A stretch of 24,041 nt of DNA, from NCBI GenBank assembly GCA_965261545.1, contig CBDHDF010000001.1:1-24041 (forward strand), given 5' to 3'. The stretch is from Bdellovibrionales bacterium. Lineage in GTDB: Bacteria; Bdellovibrionota; Bdellovibrionia; Bdellovibrionales; UBA1609. The translations under genes and the position numbers were made by a program. This document shows, piece after piece, positions 7,607 to 20,741 of the stretch. Numbering within the stretch: position 1 is the stretch's first letter; every line of letters begins with the position of its first letter. The notes beneath the pieces are model-generated. The model searched no databases. It saw nothing but the letters and a program-made list of their open reading frames with translations, and was not told the DNA's origin.

Positions 7607-9102
7607 CTTCTAAGAGCTAGCTTCATTCCTCCACGTGAGATTCGTTCTATTAGACTTTTGGCTCGTTATCGTACAAAAACGATCCGCCAAATATCTTCGG
7701 AACAAAATCGTATGTATAAGGTTCTTGAATATTCAGGCATTCGTTTAACCTATGCAATGTCTAAAGCTGACTGCGTATCTGGTATGGCCATGATTCGTGC
7801 CATAGCTAATGGAGAGAGATCAGTTTCTAAATTGATGTCTCTTGCCAGAGGGTCTTTACGTCAAAAGACCGAAGAATTTTCTTACGCCCTGTCGGGAAAG
7901 ATGACGGAAGAAAATCGTTTTGTTCTTCAACGCATTCTTGATCGAATAGATTTTTTGAAAAAAGAATGCTCTCAAATTGAAGAAGAACTTTTCATTCGTA
8001 TGAAACCCTATGAAAGGCAGTGGCATCTACTCCAGACTCAATGCCGTTTCCTTAAGAAAAATCTCTTGAAATTATTAGATAAATCGACAAGAATAAGACT
8101 TGTTTTATTTTACACCCAACCCTCAACCAAGGAGTAAGTCACATGCAATCCAATATTGATCTCGAAAGCCCCCAAATGACGAGTTCGCGTCACAGATGAC
8201 CATTTTATTCTACCAAAACTTGATTCTTCCTTCAAGCCAGAGCACCTTGTCGATCCAGAAAAACAAAAAAGGAATCGAAAATTTAATCCTCAAATTTTCT
8301 TTTTTACTATTATCTATCTTATTTCCGGAACAAATTACGAAGGCTACCAAATCGCTCTTAAGACGGTATGGACTCATTTTGGTGACCTGCTTCTCATGCC
8401 AGTCAAAAGCAGTCTCAGCAAGATACGTCAAAGTATTTCTTACCTATTTTTTAAAAATATCTTTGAATCTCTGATTACAGACTACGAACCATTGAGAAAA
8501 ACGTTTCATGGCTTTTATATCTATGCCATAGATGGTGTTAGCTGACAATTAAAATGCCCCACCGTCGCCAATGAAAAGTGGCCACTTTTCAGAGGAGGAC
8601 CTATGGTGATTTTTGGCATTGTCAACCGAGACGCATATAATCAATTGATATTACTCATAAAAAGGCTCCGAGCTGATAAGAACTCCTTTTGGGTTCTTGT
8701 CGACCTGGAAAGGGGCTCCGTGTTGGAGAGTCCTTCCATGACAGCCTATTCAGGTTCCATATTTGTCATTTGTAGACTGTTTCTGGATTTCAATGAGGTT
8801 AAATATATAGTCAAGAAAAGCCTGTTTAGGCTGTGCCCATTTTCTAAAGTATTTAAATTCCACAAGATTCCAACATTTGCCTCAATTTTCATGGAATTTC
8901 TTTCTGAAGACAGGCTTCCCTTAAAGCCGTCGCCAATTAAAATGTCCCACTTTCAATATGGAGGTTGTCGCCAATGAAAAGTGACCAATCTTCAGGGAGT
9001 GTTCAAATACTAGACAATGAAGTCTCTTCTTCTGATATAGATACTAAGCTCACAGAGTCCCTCCCTCTTGCAACTCAAAAGGTTAGCAATGAGGAGGATC
9101 TT

Positions 9103-10569
9103 ATGATTAGTCAATACACTTTCGGCCGCATTCGTGACCTGAGTCACAGTGGTAAAAATAAGACAGAAATATCTCGTGAATTAGGGATCAATCGTAAGAC
9201 GGTGCGCAAGTACTGTGAGTCCAACACCCCACCGAAGTACAAGGCGAGGTCCAAAAGAACTCGCCCAGATCCCCTTAATGGATATATGGATCGGGTGAAG
9301 TACTTTTTGAAGTTGAACCCAAGTAACACCGCCCGTGAAATATATGAGCTATTAGTTGAGGAGGGTTATCGTGGGAGTGAGAGAACGGTTCAGAGAAGAG
9401 TTTGTGAGATTCTTGGTTCTCGCCCCAAGGAGCGTTTTTTCAGCCAAAGATATGATCCTGGAGAACAGGCTCAGTTTGATTTTAAGGAGAAGGTTGCTTT
9501 ACCATTTGCCGATGGTGTTCAGATCGTTCATCTCCATTTTGGAACATTGCCTTGTAGTGGCACCTGTTGGGTTCGTGCCTACCCCTTTCTTGTCTATGAG
9601 TGTTTCATCGATGGGGTGCATGCTTTTTTTGAAAAGATAGGTGGGATGAGTGCGAACATCCGTATTGATAATTTATCTCCCTGTGTGAAGAAAGTTCTTA
9701 AAGGAAATCAGCGAATTTACACCCAATCTTTTGATCGAGCCATCCAATACTATGGATTTAAGGTTCTTCCCTGCCGCGCAGGGAAGGGCTCTGACAAGGG
9801 AGATGTGGAGCGTGATATTCGAACCTTCAGTTCTCGGATAAAAAATATTGTTAGAAACAAAGGAATTGTTTTTAAAGACTGGGATCATTTGAATCAGTTT
9901 TTAGAGTCTTATATGGATCAGCATCAGAGTGACTCCACCAAATCTCGCTTTGAGGAGGAGGCCAAAGTTCTTAAGCCTTTGCCTCCACGAGATAAAGATA
10001 TTCTCTGTAAGGTGAATATTTGTCAAAGTAATGGTTATGGGACTTTGAGAATAGGTAAAACCACATATTCCATACCTGATGAGGTGATCCAAGCTCCCTG
10101 TAAAACCGTACAGGGTCCCTATCATGTCACGATCTATCGTGCAGGAGGGAAGCAAGAAATTGTCGCTCGCCATCAAAGAAAACCTGATGGGGAGCATAGT
10201 CTTCTTCTTGAACATATCCTTCCCTCTTTAGTTCGTAAGCCGCAAGCCATGGTAAGATGGGCTCACCGATCCATTCTTTTTCCAACAAATGTGTTTGAAA
10301 ATTTTTATCAATACCTCAAGCAACAAGATTCAAGCCGTGCCGAGCATGAATATTTAAGAGTTATCAACTTGATTCAGCATGTGAGTTGGCAGGACTTATC
10401 TACAGCCATGGAGCTTCAATTAGAAAGTCGTGAGATTTTCGACTTTAAATCCATAAAAGATTTGCTCTTAGGCAATCCCACCAAAATTAATTTGAATGAC
10501 CAACAAAAACCACTTCAACCTAGATTGTCTCAATATGACAGTCTTGTTCCAAACATAGGAGGTTCTTAA
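9103..10569 (+). CDS. istA: IS21-family transposase IstA
   Basis: HTH ISRELGINRKTVRKY, PGEQAQFDF, IRIDNL, DKGDVERDI; ATG at 9103 follows GAGGAGG (ORF open from 8965). Confidence 0.95.
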   Translation: MISQYTFGRIRDLSHSGKNKTEISRELGINRKTVRKYCESNTPPKYKARSKRTRPDPLNGYMDRVKYFLKLNPSNTAREIYELLVEEGYRGSERTVQRRVCEILGSRPKERFFSQRYDPGEQAQFDFKEKVALPFADGVQIVHLHFGTLPCSGTCWVRAYPFLVYECFIDGVHAFFEKIGGMSANIRIDNLSPCVKKVLKGNQRIYTQSFDRAIQYYGFKVLPCRAGKGSDKGDVERDIRTFSSRIKNIVRNKGIVFKDWDHLNQFLESYMDQHQSDSTKSRFEEEAKVLKPLPPRDKDILCKVNICQSNGYGTLRIGKTTYSIPDEVIQAPCKTVQGPYHVTIYRAGGKQEIVARHQRKPDGEHSLLLEHILPSLVRKPQAMVRWAHRSILFPTNVFENFYQYLKQQDSSRAEHEYLRVINLIQHVSWQDLSTAMELQLESREIFDFKSIKDLLLGNPTKINLNDQQKPLQPRLSQYDSLVPNIGGS

Positions 10570-11351
10570 TGAATCACGAAGAACTTATAGGTTCTCTTAA
10601 AAAACTCCGACTTCCAGCGATGGCGGATGAATATGTTGCAACGGCTAGAGTTGCCGAAAAAACAAAAAAGACGTATGAACAGTATTTAGGTATACTCGTT
10701 CAAAATGAGCTTGCTGACAAGCATTCCCAGAGAGTGAAAAGATTGCTTAAGGGGGCCAAGCTTCCTCAACTTAAATCACTCCAAACTTATAACTTCCAGA
10801 AAAGAACGGGAGTGACAGCTCAGCAAATTAATTGGATGGCAGAGGGAGAGTGGGTCAGAAAAGCCTGTAATGTTGTGTTTTACGGAAGCTTTGGAATGGG
10901 GAAAAGTCATTTGGCCATGTCCCTAGTTCGTTCACTCTGTGAACAAGGCTATCGATGTTTATGGGTCACCACTCATGAACTTATTGAAACAATGCGTGAA
11001 AGCAAGAAAGAACTCTCATTGAATGCTCTTTTTAAGAAATTAGACCGTTTTGATCTTATTGCTTGTGATGAACTTGGCTATACAGCTTCCTGCACAGAGG
11101 GGGCAGATCTTTTCTTTCAATTCATATCTCAGCGATATGAAAGGAAAAGTCTCATGATCACTACAAACTTAACATACTCTGAATGGGATAAGGTGTTTCT
11201 TAACCCTATTACCACCGCTGCTGCTGTTGATCGAATCATTCACAACTGTGAAACCCTCAACATTGAAGGAAAAGAAAGTTGGAGAACCGAATCGGCAAAA
11301 GCCAAGTCTAAACAGAGCAAAGAGGAAAGTTCAACCAAAGAAGTTCATTAG
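10569..11351 (+). CDS. istB: IS21-family helper ATPase IstB
   Basis: GSFGMGKS, IACDELGY, RYERKSLMITTNL, AAVDRIIH; TAATG stop/start overlap with istA. Confidence 0.95.
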   Translation: MNHEELIGSLKKLRLPAMADEYVATARVAEKTKKTYEQYLGILVQNELADKHSQRVKRLLKGAKLPQLKSLQTYNFQKRTGVTAQQINWMAEGEWVRKACNVVFYGSFGMGKSHLAMSLVRSLCEQGYRCLWVTTHELIETMRESKKELSLNALFKKLDRFDLIACDELGYTASCTEGADLFFQFISQRYERKSLMITTNLTYSEWDKVFLNPITTAAAVDRIIHNCETLNIEGKESWRTESAKAKSKQSKEESSTKEVH

Positions 11352-11476: not shown

Positions 11477-13384
11477 TTTTACCGTACTATTTGCTCGTCA
11501 CTCTCGCGGAGCTTTAGACATTAGCTGCGCCAAGGAATCCTGAAAAATACTCCATTTACCTCTGCCATAGGGCTGAAGGATGCATTTGGGGTCATGCCAA
11601 AAGTGGTGGGCAGAAAATCATTCCTCAGAATCTTGTGGCATAGTCCGAGTTAAATGATGAGCAAAATAAAGACACTTGACTAAACTCTGAACGAAGAATA
11701 ACTAAATCAGTACATCATCAACTGGCCGTTTTTCATTGGCGACGGCTTCTAAAAATGGCCAATTTTAATTGGCGCCTAACAGATGGCGACCAATTAGCAC
11801 TTCCTCGCTCTAAAGATCTTTTAAAGGAGGGTTATTGTGGGTACCCTTGCCCAAATGAGATGGAAACTCATTTCTTACGTATGTATCTATCTCATGCTTA
11901 TGACGTTTTATCGGGTGTGACAAAGAATCTTTGCTTTTCTCCCGCTCTCAACGAAATCGCCAATGCTATTCAAATGATAGGTAGTTTTGAGAGTAATAGC
12001 ATAACTCTCTACGATAGCTTTATTTATCTACAGAGATTATTAAGGCCCATGCTCAAGCCAGTAACTTCTTTATTGCGCGTTGTAAGCGAGGCTCTACTTT
12101 TATCCCCATCGTAAATTTATTTAATGGCCCAGGTTGGTATTCACAAATGGTTATTGAGGGGGTGGTCATTCATCTCTATAAGTATAAAAACCCAAAGACT
12201 GGGGAGTTCTCTGTTTTGGCCACTAATCTTCCGCATGGCTCCTTGGACAAGAAGGATATGGTTGCTCTTTACTCTCGTCGTTGGGAAATAGAAACGACAT
12301 TTCGTGATTTTACATCGACAATGAAAATGGAGCAGTGGCACTCAACAAGCCTTAATGGAATATTGCAAGAGCTGTATTCTTATTTTTGGCTCTTCAATTA
12401 TACAAAGATTCAAATGAGCATAAATGAGGATGAAGACAGTGTGAATCAGTTGGTAAAAAATGACTACAAAAAACCTAACTTTAAACTGATTCTTGATTTC
12501 ATAATGGATAGCATCCCCCTTTTTGTTGCGGGGCTCTATCAGAAATTTAGGAAGCAGATAAAGTTGCTGATGAAGATTTCAATGGAGAAGAGGAGGCACT
12601 TCAAAAGAAGCTATGAAAGGTCTATCAAAAGGGCTGGGAGTTCTTTTAAAAGAAATAGCTTAACGCAGAGGCAGAGGGGTGTGGTGGCTTAAGGAAACGG
12701 CATTGACTCCAGACTATACCTGGAATTGACGAATTAAGTGCAGCGCTTTTGATTGCAGAAATAGGAGGCAATGTGAAGTCTTTTAAAAATAAAGGAAATT
12801 TTTGCTCCTGGATGGGGATTTGCCCATCCAATAATGAGAGCGCAGGAAAAAAAAAGTCTTCACGAACGAGGAAAGCGAACACATATGTGAAATCGTTGGT
12901 ATGTGAGATGGCCAATAGTGCTATTAAGACGAATTCACAATTCAAAGGCAAATACCAATCACTTGTTATAAGGCGTGGGCACAAGAGATCAGTGATTGCC
13001 GTTGGTCACAAAATGATGGGAGTTGTTTATTCAGTCATAAGTAATGACACCCCCTACAAAGACCCTGGAATTGACTATGAAAAGCTCATGGTGAAAAAAA
13101 ATGCACCAAGGTGGATTAGAGCGTTAAAAAAGTATGATTTCATGTAATGTAGGATGATTTAAAAACTCGGACATTTGAAAAAATTCGAAGAACGGATAGT
13201 GGATTCGTGCGTCCAAACTACCCCGGAGATTCATAGTAACATTCATGGGGGCGCCTTGCTTCCCCACCCACGCCCATGAATCTTATCTAGTCGCTGTCGC
13301 GAAATAGACTTAAGAAATCCATCATTCAGCTTCAAGGTGGTCTTTTTGATAAATATAATTTTCAATTTGCATAAGATTTTTAAA

Positions 13385-14802
13385 GGGTGTGCTAACGATA
13401 TACTGTAGTATTTATGCAGCCACGGGATACCCATATTGATCAATTTTTTGCCAGAACTGACCCCATCGACAGTCCGTATGGCTTAAAGATCGTAAAGAAA
13501 TGACAGAAGCTGCTCCTTTCTCTTTCCACCTCATCCCAGAATTGCAAAGCCTTTGTTTTATTAATGTCTTACATGCTGCCTCTGTAACACCTGAGCCAAT
13601 TGGAAGATTATTCTCCTGATTTTGTGCATATCTCATTTTAGACTTATTATTCTCAAAATATGTAATGGCAGACACTAACTCCCCTTTCTTGGCTTGACTC
13701 AGTCGATGAGTGTCTTTAAACCCCTTGAGCTCATTGAGTAAGCGGGTCGCTGCCCCTATATTATGCTTAAGCTTATGACATGCGTTATCAAGCCACTCCT
13801 TACGTTCAGATTTTTTCTTGTCACCAGCAAACATAGCCCCCGCAGCCCTCCCCAAGTACTCTGATGCATGCCAAAAATCAATGGTCTGATTATCTGTTTT
13901 ACTCTTTAAATAATCCCAATTTGACTTGGTTCCATCTGCAATACCAATATAGGTAGACTTAGGGTGTCTCTCTTTTACCTGAGTCAACTCCTTCTCAAAT
14001 CTTGAATAAAATTTACCCTTACCATACTCTGGTGTTGCTCCTACTTGAATCGTATGCATGCGACTTCCCTTATTGTCATATAAACTAATTGTTCCCACCA
14101 TGGCTTCTCGCCAACCATCTTCAACCATTAACATACAAGTGCCGTCTACTCCTACAGCAACACTATTCACCTTCTTGGGCATAGAGGGAAGATCATAGCT
14201 CCATGATTCATCCTTTGCTAAAGCAACAGCTCCAACCGCATCACAAAGGTGCTTTAAGTAAGGTCTAGATATATTTCGACCATGACTCTCCTTCAAATCA
14301 AAAAGAACACGACTAGAACCCATATCTGAATATTTACTTGTAACCCATTTAGAAAAACCGGGTGTTGAAGTTAGAATAATTCGTGCATCCCTTTCCAATG
14401 GGCAAAACTGACGACCACCCTTAGAGCTTTGATAAACATGACGCTCTACATCGACTTCTCCCCACATTGTTTGGTAGGTCTTATTAACTCTACCTCTAGA
14501 AGTTAACTTACTGTCTCCTATAACAATTGGTGATCCATCTGCATCAAATCGACGTAAAGCTGATTGGGTAGCTATACAACCTGCTTCATTAAGGCCATCT
14601 CTTATCATCTCTTCTGTCTTTAACATTGAACTGGATAATGGAATTATCAACTCAATAGTGACTGAGTTTGAACTACTTGATTTTAACTTTGCCTTTGGTT
14701 TTGACATAATACCCTCCTTGGTCGTAAGTCCAGCTAAAATAAAGTATCCCAAGGAATAAGGTATTTGTCTACAAATAATTACAGTATATCATTAGCACAC
14801 CC
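13385..14802 (-). mobile_element. ISKra4-family element (1418 bp)
   Basis: 23-bp IRs GGGTGTGCTAA(C/T)GATATACTGTA with one mismatch; 8-bp TSD TTTTTAAA (13377-13384, 14803-14810). Confidence 0.93.
13412..14707 (-). CDS. ISKra4-family transposase
   Basis: GVDGTCM, IADGTKSNW, DFWHASEYL, LPIGSGVTEAACKTLIKQRLCNSGMRW; AAGGAGG before ATG 14707. Confidence 0.92.
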   Translation of the reverse strand: MSKPKAKLKSSSSNSVTIELIIPLSSSMLKTEEMIRDGLNEAGCIATQSALRRFDADGSPIVIGDSKLTSRGRVNKTYQTMWGEVDVERHVYQSSKGGRQFCPLERDARIILTSTPGFSKWVTSKYSDMGSSRVLFDLKESHGRNISRPYLKHLCDAVGAVALAKDESWSYDLPSMPKKVNSVAVGVDGTCMLMVEDGWREAMVGTISLYDNKGSRMHTIQVGATPEYGKGKFYSRFEKELTQVKERHPKSTYIGIADGTKSNWDYLKSKTDNQTIDFWHASEYLGRAAGAMFAGDKKKSERKEWLDNACHKLKHNIGAATRLLNELKGFKDTHRLSQAKKGELVSAITYFENNKSKMRYAQNQENNLPIGSGVTEAACKTLIKQRLCNSGMRWKEKGAASVISLRSLSHTDCRWGQFWQKIDQYGYPVAA

Positions 14803-15168
14803 TTTTTAAATGGACTCCTCTCCTGAAGATAGCGAGTAGAGAATTCTGGGTCAAAATGGTTCATTTTACACATATCCATGATGATTTTTGCTTTTGGCCC
14901 CACTGTCCTTTTTGATGTGTTGAAGTGCTCAACAATCTCATCCATGGAAACATATGGTGACGTCTTGCTATCATAAAGAAAGTTAATTCTCCCAATGGCA
15001 TGAATAATCCCCGCAGCCCAAATTTCTACTCTTCCTGTCATGTAAGGGACTTGTCTTTTTCGAGACATTCTTGCTACTACACCGTGACAGAGGTTTTTAT
15101 ACTCATCGTTTATATATTGGTCACAAAAATCACTAATAGCCTTTTCAAGTTCTTTCCTTCTTGGTTGA

Positions 15169-16701
15169 ATGATTTGCTTCTTTTTCATTGGGCCTCCTGT
15201 TAACCTTATTACCATGTTTCACCTCATGATAAAGGATTATCGCTATGAGTTTATGCCCAGAAGGCCTCGAAACCAAGGTCCACCCTGCCAAGGTATCTAT
15301 TATCGTCACAGAATCCGATCCTCTGATTCAACTGGCCAACCACGTCGATTGGAGCTATCTGTCGTGTCTGGTCATGCCCGACTTAAAAGCCACGACTGCA
15401 AAGGGTTTTTGGTGGCTAGGAAGAAAGCTCTTTTTAAGAGTTCATCTAGCCGTGCTGCTGCTTCAGGTTCTATTCAAACTCACGGATCGAGGGGTGGAGC
15501 AACGGATAAAAGAAACGGCCAGTTATCAGCTTTTTTGTGGTCTAAATATCCTCAAAAAATGGTGTTGTCCCGATCATACGAAAATAGAAAAATTTCGCAA
15601 TCGACTGACGGAAGAGACTCACAAAGAAATAGGAGATTATATTCTTCGCTTGGCTCAATCCCTGGGGTTTGCAGACGCCTCTCATTTGGATGTCGATTCG
15701 ACCGTTCAGGAAGCCAATATGGCTTATCCCTCCGATGCCAGTCTTTTGAAAAAGTTGGCTCAGAAGTGTTACAAAATTCTTTCGTATCTTCAAGAAAAGC
15801 AGAAGACCTACTTACCATCGGGTATAACCATAGATATCAAAGCCATCATCAAGGCCGCTCGAAAGTATTTTTTTCTAGCCAAAAATTGTGTATTAGAGAA
15901 GAAGAGGGAGGTATTTTCAGACCTTCACAGTCTTGTAAAGTCAGAGTTAAAAGCCTTTATAAGGTTTGCAGAAAATCTTTCTCCACAGGCTCTAGCGAGT
16001 CTTCCTTGGAACCACCGAGAAGCCGTCACAGAAGTGAGAGACAAGGCTTGGAGATACCTTTTGGACGTGGCCCATTTTGTAAGAACTCACACCATCAAGC
16101 CTGGCAAAATCCTTGCCTTCAAATTGTGTGCGGTCGCCTGTATCAAAAAGGGGAAGTTAGGCAAAGACAAGGAGTTTGGGAGGGTCTTCCAAGTCGGGCG
16201 GATTGGTGGAAATTTTATTGTTCCCTATACTTGCACTTCTGTGAGAATGGACGACAAGGAGTCATTGCCAGCTATATTGGAAGAACATCAAAAAATATTT
16301 GGCGAAGATATTTTAGAGTCAGTTACAACAGACAAGGGGTATTATTCACAAGCCAACGTCAATCTCGTCAAAGATGTTGTGGGAAATGCAGATGGAATTC
16401 AAAGACCTGCCAACGTAAAAGAACAGGTCGAAGCCCCCCAGAAAGAAGAATTATACAATCGCAGGTCGGGGGTCGAACCTCTCATAGGGCATGTCAAAAA
16501 CTTTGGATTAGCAAGAAGCAAGATGAAAGGGGATGGGGCCACACTGGCTTCGGGGTATCGCTCGACCATGGGGTTCAATCTGCACCAAATTATGAGAAAT
16601 TTAGCGGTGACGATGCCAACTCCAAGCTTCAAGGGTGGGTAGAACAAGGGAAAGTTAAAAAGAGGCTACTTCAGAGCCCAAGTCCAAATGAGGGCACATA
16701 A
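15169..16701 (+). CDS. Candidate overprinted ORF (up to 510 aa) in the -1 frame of the IS5 transposase
   Basis: Stop-free across the whole transposase gene; in-frame ATGs at 15214, 15226 and 15253; no recognisable domain. Confidence 0.35.
   Translation: MICFFFIGPPVNLITMFHLMIKDYRYEFMPRRPRNQGPPCQGIYYRHRIRSSDSTGQPRRLELSVVSGHARLKSHDCKGFLVARKKALFKSSSSRAAASGSIQTHGSRGGATDKRNGQLSAFLWSKYPQKMVLSRSYENRKISQSTDGRDSQRNRRLYSSLGSIPGVCRRLSFGCRFDRSGSQYGLSLRCQSFEKVGSEVLQNSFVSSRKAEDLLTIGYNHRYQSHHQGRSKVFFSSQKLCIREEEGGIFRPSQSCKVRVKSLYKVCRKSFSTGSSESSLEPPRSRHRSERQGLEIPFGRGPFCKNSHHQAWQNPCLQIVCGRLYQKGEVRQRQGVWEGLPSRADWWKFYCSLYLHFCENGRQGVIASYIGRTSKNIWRRYFRVSYNRQGVLFTSQRQSRQRCCGKCRWNSKTCQRKRTGRSPPERRIIQSQVGGRTSHRACQKLWISKKQDERGWGHTGFGVSLDHGVQSAPNYEKFSGDDANSKLQGWVEQGKVKKRLLQSPSPNEGT
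15245..16642 (+). CDS. IS5-family DDE transposase, 465 aa
   Basis: LTDRGVEQ, YQLFCG, PDHT, DSTVQEANMAYPSD, KGKLGKDKEFG, TDKGY, RRSGVEPLIGHVK, GFNL. Confidence 0.9.
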   Translation: MSLCPEGLETKVHPAKVSIIVTESDPLIQLANHVDWSYLSCLVMPDLKATTAKGFWWLGRKLFLRVHLAVLLLQVLFKLTDRGVEQRIKETASYQLFCGLNILKKWCCPDHTKIEKFRNRLTEETHKEIGDYILRLAQSLGFADASHLDVDSTVQEANMAYPSDASLLKKLAQKCYKILSYLQEKQKTYLPSGITIDIKAIIKAARKYFFLAKNCVLEKKREVFSDLHSLVKSELKAFIRFAENLSPQALASLPWNHREAVTEVRDKAWRYLLDVAHFVRTHTIKPGKILAFKLCAVACIKKGKLGKDKEFGRVFQVGRIGGNFIVPYTCTSVRMDDKESLPAILEEHQKIFGEDILESVTTDKGYYSQANVNLVKDVVGNADGIQRPANVKEQVEAPQKEELYNRRSGVEPLIGHVKNFGLARSKMKGDGATLASGYRSTMGFNLHQIMRNLAVTMPTPSFKGG

Positions 16702-18492
16702 ACGGCCCTTTTTAATTTCGCGACAGCGACTATCTAGGCCCCCACTTCTTTGCACGAAGCAACTCGGTGGACAGCTTCGCTGGTCTATATAATTGGCCTC
16801 TTTTAGTTACTCTGGACTTTTGATGGTATTTTTGTCATGTATGATTCCGATACAATAAAGGATAAAGCAATAACATTATTGGAAGGTGATAAGATGAGTG
16901 GCCGTTGAATAGATTGGTAATTTTAATTCCGTGAAGTAACATGGTCTTGAGCTTTGGATCGAACCCACGCATGTACCTGCACTCTGAGTGTATGGACGTA
17001 TAGTAAGTTGACCTATTTTCGCTTTAGAATTTATGGCAAAATCCCAAGGCTCTAGTTTTATCACCTTCTTTTTTTCTAACAGAAAGGAGGAGTCATGTGG
17101 ATATTATTTATAGTTCTGTTTGTGGAATAGATGTTCATCAACATATGTTGATGTGTACGATTGTCAAAGTGGAAGACGGTAAGAAGAAGTTTTTCACAAA
17201 AGAGTTCAAGAATTTTCCAAAAAATTTTCCTAGAATGCGCTCTTGGATGAAGCCACATAAGGTTGAGAGAGTTCTTTTTGAGAGCACAGGGATTTATTGG
17301 AATTCTTTATACGATGATTTGACAGAAAAAGGTTATGAAGTAGATGTTATCAATGCCTTTCATGTCAAAAATATTACTGGTAAAAAAACTGACGTGTTGG
17401 ATAGCCAGTGGATTGCAGAGCTTGGTGCTTGTGGTCTTCTAAGAGCTAGCTTCATTCCTCCACGTGAGATTCGTTCTATTAGACTTTTGGCTCGTTATCG
17501 TACAAAAACGATCCGCCAAATATCTTCGGAACAAAATCGTATGTATAAGGTTCTTGAATATTCAGGCATTCGTTTAACCTATGCAATGTCTAAAGCTGAC
17601 TGCGTATCTGGTATGGCCATGATTCGTGCCATAGCTAATGGAGAGAGATCAGTTTCTAAATTGATGTCTCTTGCCAGAGGGTCTTTACGTCAAAAGACCG
17701 AAGAATTTTCTTACGCCCTGTCGGGAAAGATGACGGAAGAAAATCGTTTTGTTCTTCAACGCATTCTTGATCGAATAGATTTTTTGAAAAAAGAATGCTC
17801 TCAAATTGAAGAAGAACTTTTCATTCGTATGAAACCCTATGAAAGGCAGTGGCATCTACTCCAGACTATACCTGGAATTGACGAATTAAGTGCAGCGCTT
17901 TTGATTGCAGAAATAGGAGGCAATGTGTTAGCTGACAATTAAAATGCCCCACCGTCGCCAATGAAAAGTGGCCACTTTTCAGAGGAGGACCTATGGTGAT
18001 TTTTGGCATTGTCAACCGAGACGCATATAATCAATTGATATTACTCATAAAAAGGCTCCGAGCTGATAAGAACTCCTTTTGGGTTCTTGTCGACCTGGAA
18101 AGGGGCTCCGTGTTGGAGAGTCCTTCCATGACAGCCTATTCAGGTTCCATATTTCTCCTTTGTAGACTGTTTCTGGATTTCAATGAGGTTAAATATATAG
18201 TCAAGAAAAGCCTGTTTAGGCTGTGCCCATTTTCTAAAGTATTTAAATTCCACAAGATTCCAACATTTGCCTCAATTTTCATGGAATTTCTTTCTGAAGA
18301 CAGGCTTCCCTTAAAGCCGTCGCCAATTAAAATGTCCCACTTTCAATATGGAGGTTGTCGCCAATGAAAAGTGACCAATCTTCAGGGAGTGTTCAAATAC
18401 TAGACAATGAAGTCTCTTCTTCTGATATAGATACTAAGCTCACAGAGTCCCTCCCTTTTGCAACTCAAAAGGTTAGCAATGAGGAGGATCTT

Positions 18493-19959
18493 ATGATTAG
18501 TCAATACACTTTCGGCCGCATTCGTGACCTGAGTCACAGTGGTAAAAATAAGACAGAAATATCTCGTGAATTAGGGATCAATCGTAAGACGGTGCGCAAG
18601 TACTGTGAGTCCAACACCCCACCGAAGTACAAGGCGAGGTCCAAAAGAACTCGCCCAGATCCCCTTAATGGATATATGGATCGGGTGAAGTACTTTTTGA
18701 AGTTGAACCCAAGTAACACCGCCCGTGAAATATATGAGCTATTAGTTGAGGAGGGTTATCGTGGGAGTGAGAGAACGGTTCAGAGAAGAGTTTGTGAGAT
18801 TCTTGGTTCTCGCCCCAAGGAGCGTTTTTTCAGCCAAAGATATGATCCTGGAGAACAGGCTCAGTTTGATTTTAAGGAGAAGGTTGCTTTACCATTTGCC
18901 GATGGTGTTCAGATCGTTCATCTCCATTTTGGAACATTGCCTTGTAGTGGCACCTGTTGGGTTCGTGCCTACCCCTTTCTTGTCTATGAGTGTTTCATCG
19001 ATGGGGTGCATGCTTTTTTTGAAAAGATAGGTGGGATGAGTGCGAACATCCGTATTGATAATTTATCTCCCTGTGTGAAGAAAGTTCTTAAAGGAAATCA
19101 GCGAATTTACACCCAATCTTTTGATCGAGCCATCCAATACTATGGATTTAAGGTTCTTCCCTGCCGCGCAGGGAAGGGCTCTGACAAGGGAGATGTGGAG
19201 CGTGATATTCGAACCTTCAGTTCTCGGATAAAAAATATTGTTAGAAACAAAGGAATTGTTTTTAAAGACTGGGATCATTTGAATCAGTTTTTAGAGTCTT
19301 ATATGGATCAGCATCAGAGTGACTCCACCAAATCTCGCTTTGAGGAGGAGGCCAAAGTTCTTAAGCCTTTGCCTCCACGAGATGAAGATATTCTCTGTAA
19401 GGTGAATATTTGTCAAAGTAATGGTTATGGGACTTTGAGAATAGGTAAAACCACATATTCCATACCTGATGAGGTGATCCAATCTCCCTGTAAAACCGTA
19501 CAGGGTCCCTATCATGTCACGATCTATCGTGCAGGAGGGAAGCAAGAAATTGTCGCTCGCCATCAAAGAAAACCTGATGGGGAGCATAGTCTTCTTCTTG
19601 AACATATCCTTCCCTCTTTAGTTCGTAAGCCGCAAGCCATGGTAAGATGGGCTCACCGATCCATTCTTTTTCCAACAAATGTGTTTGAAAATTTTTATCA
19701 ATACCTCAAGCAACAAGATTCAAGCCGTGCCGAGCATGAATATTTAAGAGTTATCAACTTGATTCAGCATGTGAGTTGGCAGGACTTATCTACAGCCATG
19801 GAGCTTCAATTAGAAAGTCGTGAGATTTTCGACTTTAAATCCATAAAAGATTTGCTCTTAGGCAATCCCACCAAAATTAATTTGAATGACCAACAAAAAC
19901 CACTTCAACCTAGATTGTCTCAATATGACAGTCTTGTTCCAAACATAGGAGGTTCTTAA
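18493..19959 (+). CDS. istA: IS21-family transposase IstA
   Basis: Two amino-acid differences from 9103-10569. Confidence 0.95.
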   Translation: MISQYTFGRIRDLSHSGKNKTEISRELGINRKTVRKYCESNTPPKYKARSKRTRPDPLNGYMDRVKYFLKLNPSNTAREIYELLVEEGYRGSERTVQRRVCEILGSRPKERFFSQRYDPGEQAQFDFKEKVALPFADGVQIVHLHFGTLPCSGTCWVRAYPFLVYECFIDGVHAFFEKIGGMSANIRIDNLSPCVKKVLKGNQRIYTQSFDRAIQYYGFKVLPCRAGKGSDKGDVERDIRTFSSRIKNIVRNKGIVFKDWDHLNQFLESYMDQHQSDSTKSRFEEEAKVLKPLPPRDEDILCKVNICQSNGYGTLRIGKTTYSIPDEVIQSPCKTVQGPYHVTIYRAGGKQEIVARHQRKPDGEHSLLLEHILPSLVRKPQAMVRWAHRSILFPTNVFENFYQYLKQQDSSRAEHEYLRVINLIQHVSWQDLSTAMELQLESREIFDFKSIKDLLLGNPTKINLNDQQKPLQPRLSQYDSLVPNIGGS

Positions 19960-20741
19960 TGAATCACGAAGAACTTATAGGTTCTCTTAAAAAACTCCGA
20001 CTTCCAGCGATGGCGGATGAATATGTTGCAACGGCTAGAGTTGCCGAAAAAACAAAAAAGACGTATGAACAGTATTTAGGTATACTCGTTCAAAATGAGC
20101 TTGCTGACAAGCATTCCCAGAGAGTGAAAAGATTGCTTAAGGGGGCCAAGCTTCCTCAACTTAAATCACTCCAAACTTATAACTTCCAGAAAAGAACGGG
20201 AGTGACAGCTCAGCAAATTAATTGGATGGCAGAGGGAGAGTGGGTCAGAAAAGCCTGTAATGTTGTGTTTTACGGAAGCTTTGGAATGGGGAAAAGTCAT
20301 TTGGCCATGTCCCTAGTTCGTTCACTCTGTGAACAAGGCTATCGATGTTTATGGGTCACCACTCATGAACTTATTGAAACAATGCGTGAAAGCAAGAAAG
20401 AACTCTCATTGAATGCTCTTTTTAAGAAATTAGACCGTTTTGATCTTATTGCTTGTGATGAACTTGGCTATACAGCTTCCTGCACAGAGGGTGCTGATCT
20501 TTTCTTTCAATTCATATCTCAGCGATATGAAAGGAAAAGTCTCATGATCACTACAAACTTAACTTACTCTGAATGGGATAAGGTGTTTCTTAACCCTATT
20601 ACCACCGCTGCTGCTGTTGATCGAATTATTCACAACTGTGAAACCCTCAACATTGAAGGAAAAGAAAGTTGGAGAACCGAATCGGCAAAAGCCAAGTCTA
20701 AACAGAGCAAAGAGGAAAGTTCAACCAAAGAAGTTCATTAG
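19959..20741 (+). CDS. istB: IS21-family helper ATPase IstB
   Basis: Protein identical to 10569-11351. Confidence 0.95.
   Translation: MNHEELIGSLKKLRLPAMADEYVATARVAEKTKKTYEQYLGILVQNELADKHSQRVKRLLKGAKLPQLKSLQTYNFQKRTGVTAQQINWMAEGEWVRKACNVVFYGSFGMGKSHLAMSLVRSLCEQGYRCLWVTTHELIETMRESKKELSLNALFKKLDRFDLIACDELGYTASCTEGADLFFQFISQRYERKSLMITTNLTYSEWDKVFLNPITTAAAVDRIIHNCETLNIEGKESWRTESAKAKSKQSKEESSTKEVH

Follow-up and report, generated by a model that had tools for sequence, protein, structure and literature searches.

A stop-free second reading frame kept open by selection along the whole transposase gene of an IS5-like element

Viral overprinted genes are usually much shorter than the overlap described here, and they are usually detected through the reduced synonymous variability of the older gene. 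Transposase genes, too, can hold open reading frames (ORFs) in another frame; those embedded in IS1414 and in Escherichia coli IS5 are short. For upstream or leader ORFs, it is translation and not the product that controls the downstream gene, including by way of Rho-dependent termination. In Pseudomonas aeruginosa, olg1 and olg2, ORFs of 957 and 1536 nucleotides (nt) embedded in annotated genes, are reported to be translated; they are antisense, belong to a GC-rich genome, and have been reported as subject to purifying selection (as given in PMC8850804). Insertion sequences (ISs) that rely on frameshifting have partly overlapping ORFs that a slippery site fuses into the transposase (as described in PMC5009743), and the astA (EAST1) gene of IS1414 lies inside a gene resembling that of a transposase (as cited in PMC3454372). 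Here we analyze a same-strand ORF that covers the entire transposase gene of an IS5-like element in a 24,041-nt stretch of DNA from a Bdellovibrionales bacterium (GenBank assembly GCA_965261545.1, contig CBDHDF010000001.1, positions 1 to 24,041), the whole of which is referred to as the window. An earlier note, made from the sequence alone, had drawn attention to this ORF. Searches of full-text literature, with subscription journals and ISfinder outside their coverage, brought up no account of a second frame that runs the full length of an IS5-like transposase. The two frames are laid out in the window as follows.

15245..16642, + strand: IS5-like DDE transposase gene, 465 amino acids (aa) (Pfam DUF772, 7.3e-11; DDE_Tnp_1, 2.8e-6)
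15169..16701, + strand: stop-free second-frame ORF, 510 codons from the first ATG and 491 from ATG 15226
15226..15228, + strand: likely second-frame start codon, ATG at -19 relative to the transposase ATG; alternative ATG at 15214 (-31)
16643..16701, + strand: continuation of the second frame after the transposase gene has ended, 19 codons followed by TAA

The 510-codon ORF is the -1 frame of the 465-codon transposase ORF, and both are read from the + strand. Within the transposase coding sequence (CDS), the -1 frame contains no stops, as the earlier note had stated, while the +1 frame contains 32 and the three antisense frames contain 22 to 25. A stop arises in the -1 frame only where a codon ending in T precedes a codon starting with AA, AG, or GA. 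Such risk codons number 132 in the transposase (61 AA, 21 AG, and 50 GA), more than the approximately 110 Lys, Asn, Asp, and Glu codons first estimated, and not one of them follows T (0/132), exactly as had been noticed; for the other codons of the same CDS, the preceding codon ends in T in 124 of 333 cases. In the window's remaining long ORFs, with the overlapping ORF itself excluded, T precedes 21 to 36% of such risk codons. When synonymous codons were exchanged among positions of the same amino acid, 28.0 ± 3.6 stops were expected in the -1 frame (minimum, 15; observed, 0), the frame was fully open in 0 of 20,000 shuffles, and the longest open run of any shuffle was 185 codons. The shuffling check proposed in the earlier note thus came out in favor of its claim. 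Stops in the +1 frame fit the shuffles (32 observed versus 28.5 ± 2.9 expected). The DNA had been described as AT rich; the GC content proved to be 41% for the window and 45% for the transposase CDS. The 4.3-Mb genome has 1835 stop-to-stop ORFs that reach 300 codons or more; of these, only copies of this transposase gene have 0 to 1 stops in the -1 frame, where about 35 would be expected, and the genome-wide median observed/expected ratio of -1 stops was 0.77. The open -1 frame is real and lies far beyond chance.

The sole full-length copy of the transposase gene in the genome that has a -1 frame stop (at 1 of 131 risk junctions; locus L005, G000:C7:362231..363640) belongs to the one IS copy whose left end is missing and which is therefore presumably dead.

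A search with the transposase protein yielded 1254 homologues at an E value of ≤1e-3. DNA loci were taken from a scan of a genome collection (80 loci) and a scan of metagenome contigs (80 loci) and were kept if a single ORF aligned from query residue ≤20 to ≥440, which gave 86 loci and, with the window, 87. The remaining 74 loci, whose matches were partial or split, were left out of the counts, and several of these were also stop free over the part that was present (e.g., L016, L021, L024, L039, and L042). Only the transposase frame decided which loci were taken, and the second frame thus had no part in their selection. With 300 synonymous shuffles per gene as the null, the genes fell into three groups by their -1 stops.

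Open group: 37 genes, 4 stops (0 to 1 per gene), 809 expected, z of -4.2 to -8.2
Mid group: 13 genes, 157 stops, 240 expected, intermediate
Closed group: 37 genes, 1433 stops, 1561 expected, near expectation

The open genes encode proteins with approximately 40 to 66% identity to the window protein, and their GC contents range from 0.35 to 0.63. Scattered stops in moderately diverged homologues, which the earlier note had named as evidence against its claim, were all but absent from these 37 genes (4 stops in total). Four-fold degenerate sites are saturated among open genes (identity, 0.29 to 0.30 at 40 to 60% amino acid identity) and likewise among closed genes (0.29 to 0.30), and therefore the absence of stops in the open clade is not inherited similarity and the lineages count as independent. 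Over 4393 junctions pooled from the open genes, the frequency of T before AA, AG, or GA was 0.00, and before each of the 13 other dinucleotides it was 0.20 to 0.34 (e.g., 0.31 before GG versus 0.00 before GA); at risk junctions the avoided T was swapped mainly for C. Exactly the three stop triplets are purged, and in one phase only, which excludes composition, dinucleotide bias, and DNA-motif avoidance. Selection keeps the -1 frame open in this IS clade.

A start codon accompanies the open frame. In 32/37 open genes, ATG, GTG, or TTG was present in the -1 frame at -28 to -16 relative to the transposase ATG (five triplets), most often at -22. In the same interval, open genes had such a codon in the transposase frame in 2/37 cases and in the +1 frame in 8/37. 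A -1 frame start was found there in 8/37 closed genes, in several of which a stop follows it ahead of the transposase start, and in 3/13 mid genes. Since several open genes have a stop immediately upstream of the conserved start, the second frame opens at that start. ATG 15226 (-19) or ATG 15214 (-31) in the window matches the conserved start, and two further starts suggested for it, 15169 and 15253, do not. Taken with the purged stops, the recurrence of this start bears out the earlier proposal that selection keeps the second frame open.

The second frame also continues beyond the transposase gene. It had been placed as ending just inside the right terminal inverted repeat; its actual end, 16701, lies 13 nt before that repeat (16715..16730). 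In open genes, the -1 frame was open for a median of 83 nt beyond the transposase stop and closed within 20 nt in only 2/37 genes. The +1 frame of open genes was open for a median of 31 nt past the stop (P = 2e-4, Mann-Whitney test) and closed within 20 nt in 16/37, and the -1 frame of closed genes was open for a median of 23 nt (P = 8e-7). Where open and mid elements carry the terminal repeat of the family, the distance from the transposase stop to the end of the IS was 86 to 146 nt, and it was 21 to 48 nt in 12 of the 18 closed elements with a credible terminal repeat; from this difference, the 3' spacer appears to be tied to the second frame and to shrink after the frame is lost.

The right end has features of its own in a large sub-clade (L014, L106, L116, L117, L130, L149, L150, and others), where the terminal repeats are 40 to 90 nt long and the second frame often extends into or across the terminal repeat. 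The IS ends of this sub-clade can each fold into a perfect GC-rich hairpin with the core CTGGCGC-GAAA-GCGCCAG, preceded by a common sub-terminal motif, GAGATCC[T/C]TCGC ... GGACACGTC. In the window, a candidate stem around the second-frame stop (5 bp with a 9-nt loop and a T run; 16691..16719) was dropped, as it is absent in L091 and L011.

We found no constraint on the product of the second frame. The identity of second-frame proteins in open pairs that are about 50% identical in the transposase was 23.8%, versus 22.1% under a null in which synonymous codons were resampled without -1 stops, and the closed-clade equivalent was 22.3% versus 21.0%; the small excess is also present in the closed clade and therefore is not specific to the open clade. 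Synonymous divergence, which the earlier note had proposed to inspect, was not depressed relative to clades without the frame, and a comparison of open and closed genes in 20-codon windows gave no clear extra synonymous conservation (largest difference, +0.067, in the last window). Third bases were biased neither towards nor away from charge, Cys, or Trp, with only stops avoided, and G, which leads to Glu or Gly, was equally frequent before AA, AG, or GA and elsewhere. Invariant columns numbered 2 in 28 second-frame proteins versus more than 100 in 30 transposases. None of the 28 second-frame proteins matched Pfam, the window ORF has no Pfam or NCBIfam family, and AlphaFold2 run with the 28-sequence alignment predicted no fold (mean pLDDT, 34.5; pTM, 0.14). 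Past the transposase stop, the tails vary in length and sequence, are unrelated even between close relatives such as L130 and L125, and share no conserved C-terminal peptide. The second-frame sequence is without constraint of its own. Preservation of a particular Arg/Ser-rich product, as the earlier note had imagined, is therefore not supported, given the saturated four-fold sites, an identity margin that is the same with and without the frame, and the lack of a Pfam match or a fold; nor did a sequence-specific regulator find support.

A search for homologues of the second-frame product among proteins of 270 to 860 residues returned a single match, the chimera P0003. The first part of this 425-aa database protein is read in the second frame; from the equivalent of window positions ~15575..15585 onwards, it follows the transposase frame. 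It has the look of a near-identical copy from which 1 nt was deleted within a short run of A, most likely through mutation, and it illustrates the chimeric gene calls that are possible where both frames are open.

In a maximum-likelihood tree that was built quickly (LG+G4, SH-aLRT as the sole measure of support, rooted at the midpoint, with some long branches flagged), the open state is scattered through a clade of 80 sequences, with closed and mid clades nested inside it and closed outgroups. Mid genes have lost the start codon in 10/13 cases, show partial stop counts, and keep the long 3' spacer, a pattern that is what recent loss would look like. According to the sequence records, the hosts of open genes are metagenome-assembled genomes of Bacteriovoracaceae, Pseudobacteriovorax, Silvanigrellaceae, Nitrospiria, and Pseudomonadota. 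Closed genes are found mainly in Legionella and other AT-rich intracellular lineages, and the best named relative among annotated plasmids, a "transposase" of a Legionella pneumophila plasmid with 38% identity, belongs to the closed clade.

We infer from these sequence patterns that the -1 frame is probably translated and selected for openness only. Second-frame translation would begin at its own start, approximately 19 to 22 nt upstream of the transposase ATG, and its ribosomes would traverse the whole transposase gene and typically continue for at least 44 nt past its stop. Selection would purge every second-frame stop and disregard the encoded amino acids, and since stops are purged while amino acids are ignored, what is preserved would be the uninterrupted passage of ribosomes along the transposase mRNA and not a particular protein. 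Second-frame ribosomes would maintain translation of the transcript from its 5' end almost as far as the element's right end, and such coverage may protect against premature Rho-dependent termination or decay or may limit polarity. A cis-acting purpose of this kind for ribosome passage is suggested only tentatively. As a whole, a translated second frame in which uninterrupted ribosome passage is preserved, probably in cis, is the best explanation that we can offer, at a confidence just short of even. In its fullest form, this IS clade might keep a full-length "escort" frame of approximately 490 to 600 codons, with ribosome run-through as its sole selected property and a throw-away polypeptide as its product, which would amount to cis-regulatory translation on the scale of a gene; we regard this as a possibility held at somewhat below even confidence.

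Several observations weigh against this explanation. The mRNA should be covered in any case by ribosomes in the transposase frame, which leaves the need for a second frame unexplained. The proposed start is not a strong one: mean predicted Shine-Dalgarno pairing is -3.5 kcal/mol for the second frame versus -5.3 for the transposase start (background, -2.3), the start codon is TTG or GTG in 14/32 genes, and the window copy has no Shine-Dalgarno match ahead of the second-frame ATG at 15226. Predicted RNA accessibility around the two starts is similar in the open, mid, and closed groups, and long-range pairing of the 3' region with the region of the 5' start is unconvincing (mean z, -0.62 in open versus +0.13 in closed genes); predicted accessibility and 5'-3' pairing thus lend nothing to a structure-melting role. 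The end of the second frame ranges from -128 to +92 nt relative to the end of the IS. The frame is rich in AGA/CGA-type Arg codons and shows no bias towards GGA, and therefore elongation efficiency is not optimized. Finally, well-supported branches of the tree require at least 4 to 6 state changes, and the open frame was lost several times with the transposase intact, which makes the second frame dispensable for the transposase. The frame is dispensable, yet strictly maintained where it is present.

Instead of ribosome passage, the second frame could serve a de novo overprinted accessory protein, long, disordered, and basic, that functions through its bulk properties (length, charge, and disorder) and might, for instance, bind nucleic acids or modulate transposition. 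The conserved start of its own, the full-length openness, and the unique C-terminal extension are as expected of a gene, and the low pLDDT values fit disorder. From the genetic code and the third-base data, moreover, the transposase fixes codon positions 2 and 3 of the -1 overlap, so the physicochemical pattern of the second frame would be inherited without extra constraint. Such a protein is nonetheless unlikely, in our estimation, though it deserves to be taken seriously. Third bases show no bias on charge, Cys and Trp are not avoided, conservation is no greater than in relatives that lost the frame, and the tails are unrelated even among close relatives. A protein acting through bulk properties should also tolerate late truncation, yet only 2/37 frames stop slightly before the transposase stop, and the openness of the last few percent of the gene and of about 15 further codons would be left unexplained.

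It is much less probable that the open frame serves frameshifted products, with slippage of the ribosome or of RNA polymerase giving trans-frame proteins like the orfA-orfB fusions of IS1, IS3, and some IS5-family elements, although frameshifting is used by the IS1, IS3, IS5, and IS630 families (as described in PMC5009743) and P0003 joins a second-frame N terminus to the C-terminal part of the transposase in a natural chimera. The open clade has no slippery heptamer or A/T run specific to it (best column, 13/37 open versus 12/37 closed genes), P0003, which looks to have lost 1 nt, is most likely a mutant copy, and the transposase already is one uninterrupted ORF that holds both domains. A single shift site needs openness on one side only, whereas the frame is open throughout, also upstream of any possible shift site, and has a start of its own; the frameshift product that the earlier note had offered as an alternative is thus not supported. 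Finally, an untranslated second frame that is a by-product of composition, codon-pair bias, or DNA-motif avoidance can be given almost no credence, since, even though codon bias commonly yields long shadow ORFs in other genes and normal genes of this genome are mildly depleted in -1 stops, the avoidance here is frame specific, is confined to exactly the three stop triplets, is absolute over the whole range of GC contents, is absent from the other genes of the same genome and from the sister clades of the family, and is accompanied by a frame-specific start codon.

The element that carries the two frames is larger than the earlier note had assumed and is interrupted by another IS. Its remaining features and those of the inserted IS are as follows.

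13290..16730: the whole IS5-like element, interrupted here by an ISKra4-family IS
13290..13305, + strand: left terminal inverted repeat, 16 bp, an exact inverted match to 16715..16730
16715..16730, - strand: right terminal inverted repeat, 16 bp, which pairs with 13290..13305
13381..14802 (approximate), - strand: separate ISKra4-family IS of ~1.4 kb, given as context only, with its transposase ORF at 13412..14752
14769..15188 (also given as 14769..15215), - strand: DUF6398 passenger gene, divergent from the transposase gene (Pfam DUF6398, 1.2e-38)

In the IS5-like transposase, both DUF772, the InsH-type N-terminal domain, and the DDE_Tnp_1 catalytic domain exceed the curated Pfam cutoffs. The best NCBIfam model is IS5_1, with 174.3 bits, under its cutoff of 275, and further scores are likewise below the cutoff (ISNCY_1, 141 versus 325; IS1182, 90 versus 270). 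As no curated NCBIfam cutoff is reached, we refer to the element as IS5-like, of an uncurated subgroup; homologues are named "IS5 family transposase" in several JGI records. Besides the interrupted copy of the window, the genome has three intact copies of 2015 bp each with perfect 16-bp terminal repeats. Target duplications of the element are 6 bp long (TAACTA, TATCTA, and AAGTTA), and the terminal repeat core GTCGCTG(G/T)CGCGAAA is common to the whole family. A scan of 14803..16800 gave four promoter-like sites versus 2.6 expected, none of them positioned for the transposase, and no terminators on the + strand.

The ORF at 13412..14752 on the - strand matches the NCBIfam ISKra4 transposase model (1.6e-59). 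The bounds of this IS come from independent genome copies that match 13381..14802 and from other copies of the IS5-like element, in which ~13387 is fused directly to 14803. Imperfect terminal repeats of ~32 nt lie at 13376..13407 and 14780..14811. The insertion cuts the 3' part of the DUF6398 gene in the window copy; the intact ORF has 155 aa from its first ATG (L003, 1149..1616). An AGGAGG lies 5 nt ahead of the second ATG of this gene (15188), and 56 nt separate its start from the transposase ATG. A link between the DUF6398 gene and the open frame was considered and rejected: a related gene is present at only 6/86 homologue loci (2 open, 3 mid, and 1 closed) and is therefore unrelated to the open-frame trait.

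The flanks of the IS5-like element, 13100..13290 and 16731..16800, are both repeated, each with more than 20 near-identical genome matches among the matches listed, and therefore this copy sits within another multicopy element. The window is a nest of mobile elements. IS110-type fragments lie at 12749..13147 and 17097..17942, and at 8965..11351 and 18355..20741, ~9.4 kb apart, are two ORF pairs (534 aa and 260 aa) that are identical in length and in codon statistics and resemble a further, two-gene IS present twice.

In bacteria, a long ORF that overlaps a gene on the same strand is usually written off as a shadow of codon bias. Such a shadow is excluded here on statistical grounds, because exactly the three stop triplets are missing in one phase, across dozens of saturated lineages, and together with a phase-specific start. 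If the second frame is translated, it would rank with the longest dual-coding regions that bacterial elements are known to contain and would be a rare case of selection apparently acting on openness alone. The case separates conservation of an ORF from conservation of a protein, a distinction that matters for the detection and the interpretation of overlapping genes. The system is also tractable: a single change, silent in the transposase, suffices to put a stop into the second frame, and comparative controls exist in nature, where the frame was repeatedly lost and the 3' spacer shrank thereafter.

How the locus relates to described systems can be set out on this basis. Like the overprinted genes of viruses and phages, the second frame lies in another frame of an older gene, has its own start, and arose within one clade, and its product is, as theirs are, basic and predicted to be unstructured. 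Unlike in viral overprinted genes, the overlap of ~465 codons takes in the whole host gene and no reduction in synonymous variability can be detected; of the signs of an overprinted gene, openness beyond shuffles and a conserved start were found, and reduced synonymous variation and extra protein conservation were not. Unlike olg1 and olg2, the frame is on the same strand as its host gene, a mobile-element gene with 45% GC; the frame is kept in many hosts, and the constraint is against stops alone. As in the frameshifting IS1, IS3, and some IS5 and IS630 elements (as described in PMC5009743), there are two same-strand frames of which the second is in -1; unlike in these, the transposase ORF is intact and wholly overlapped, and no slippery site is shared. 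With astA in IS1414 and the internal ORFs of E. coli IS5, the locus has in common an extra ORF in another frame inside a transposase gene, but here the frame spans the whole gene and more. Like leader ORFs, the second frame shows little or no peptide constraint and starts just upstream of the ribosome-binding site of the gene that it would regulate; leader ORFs, however, comprise tens of codons and stop ahead of the regulated gene or shortly after its beginning, whereas this frame runs for ~490 to 600 codons and past the end of the gene.

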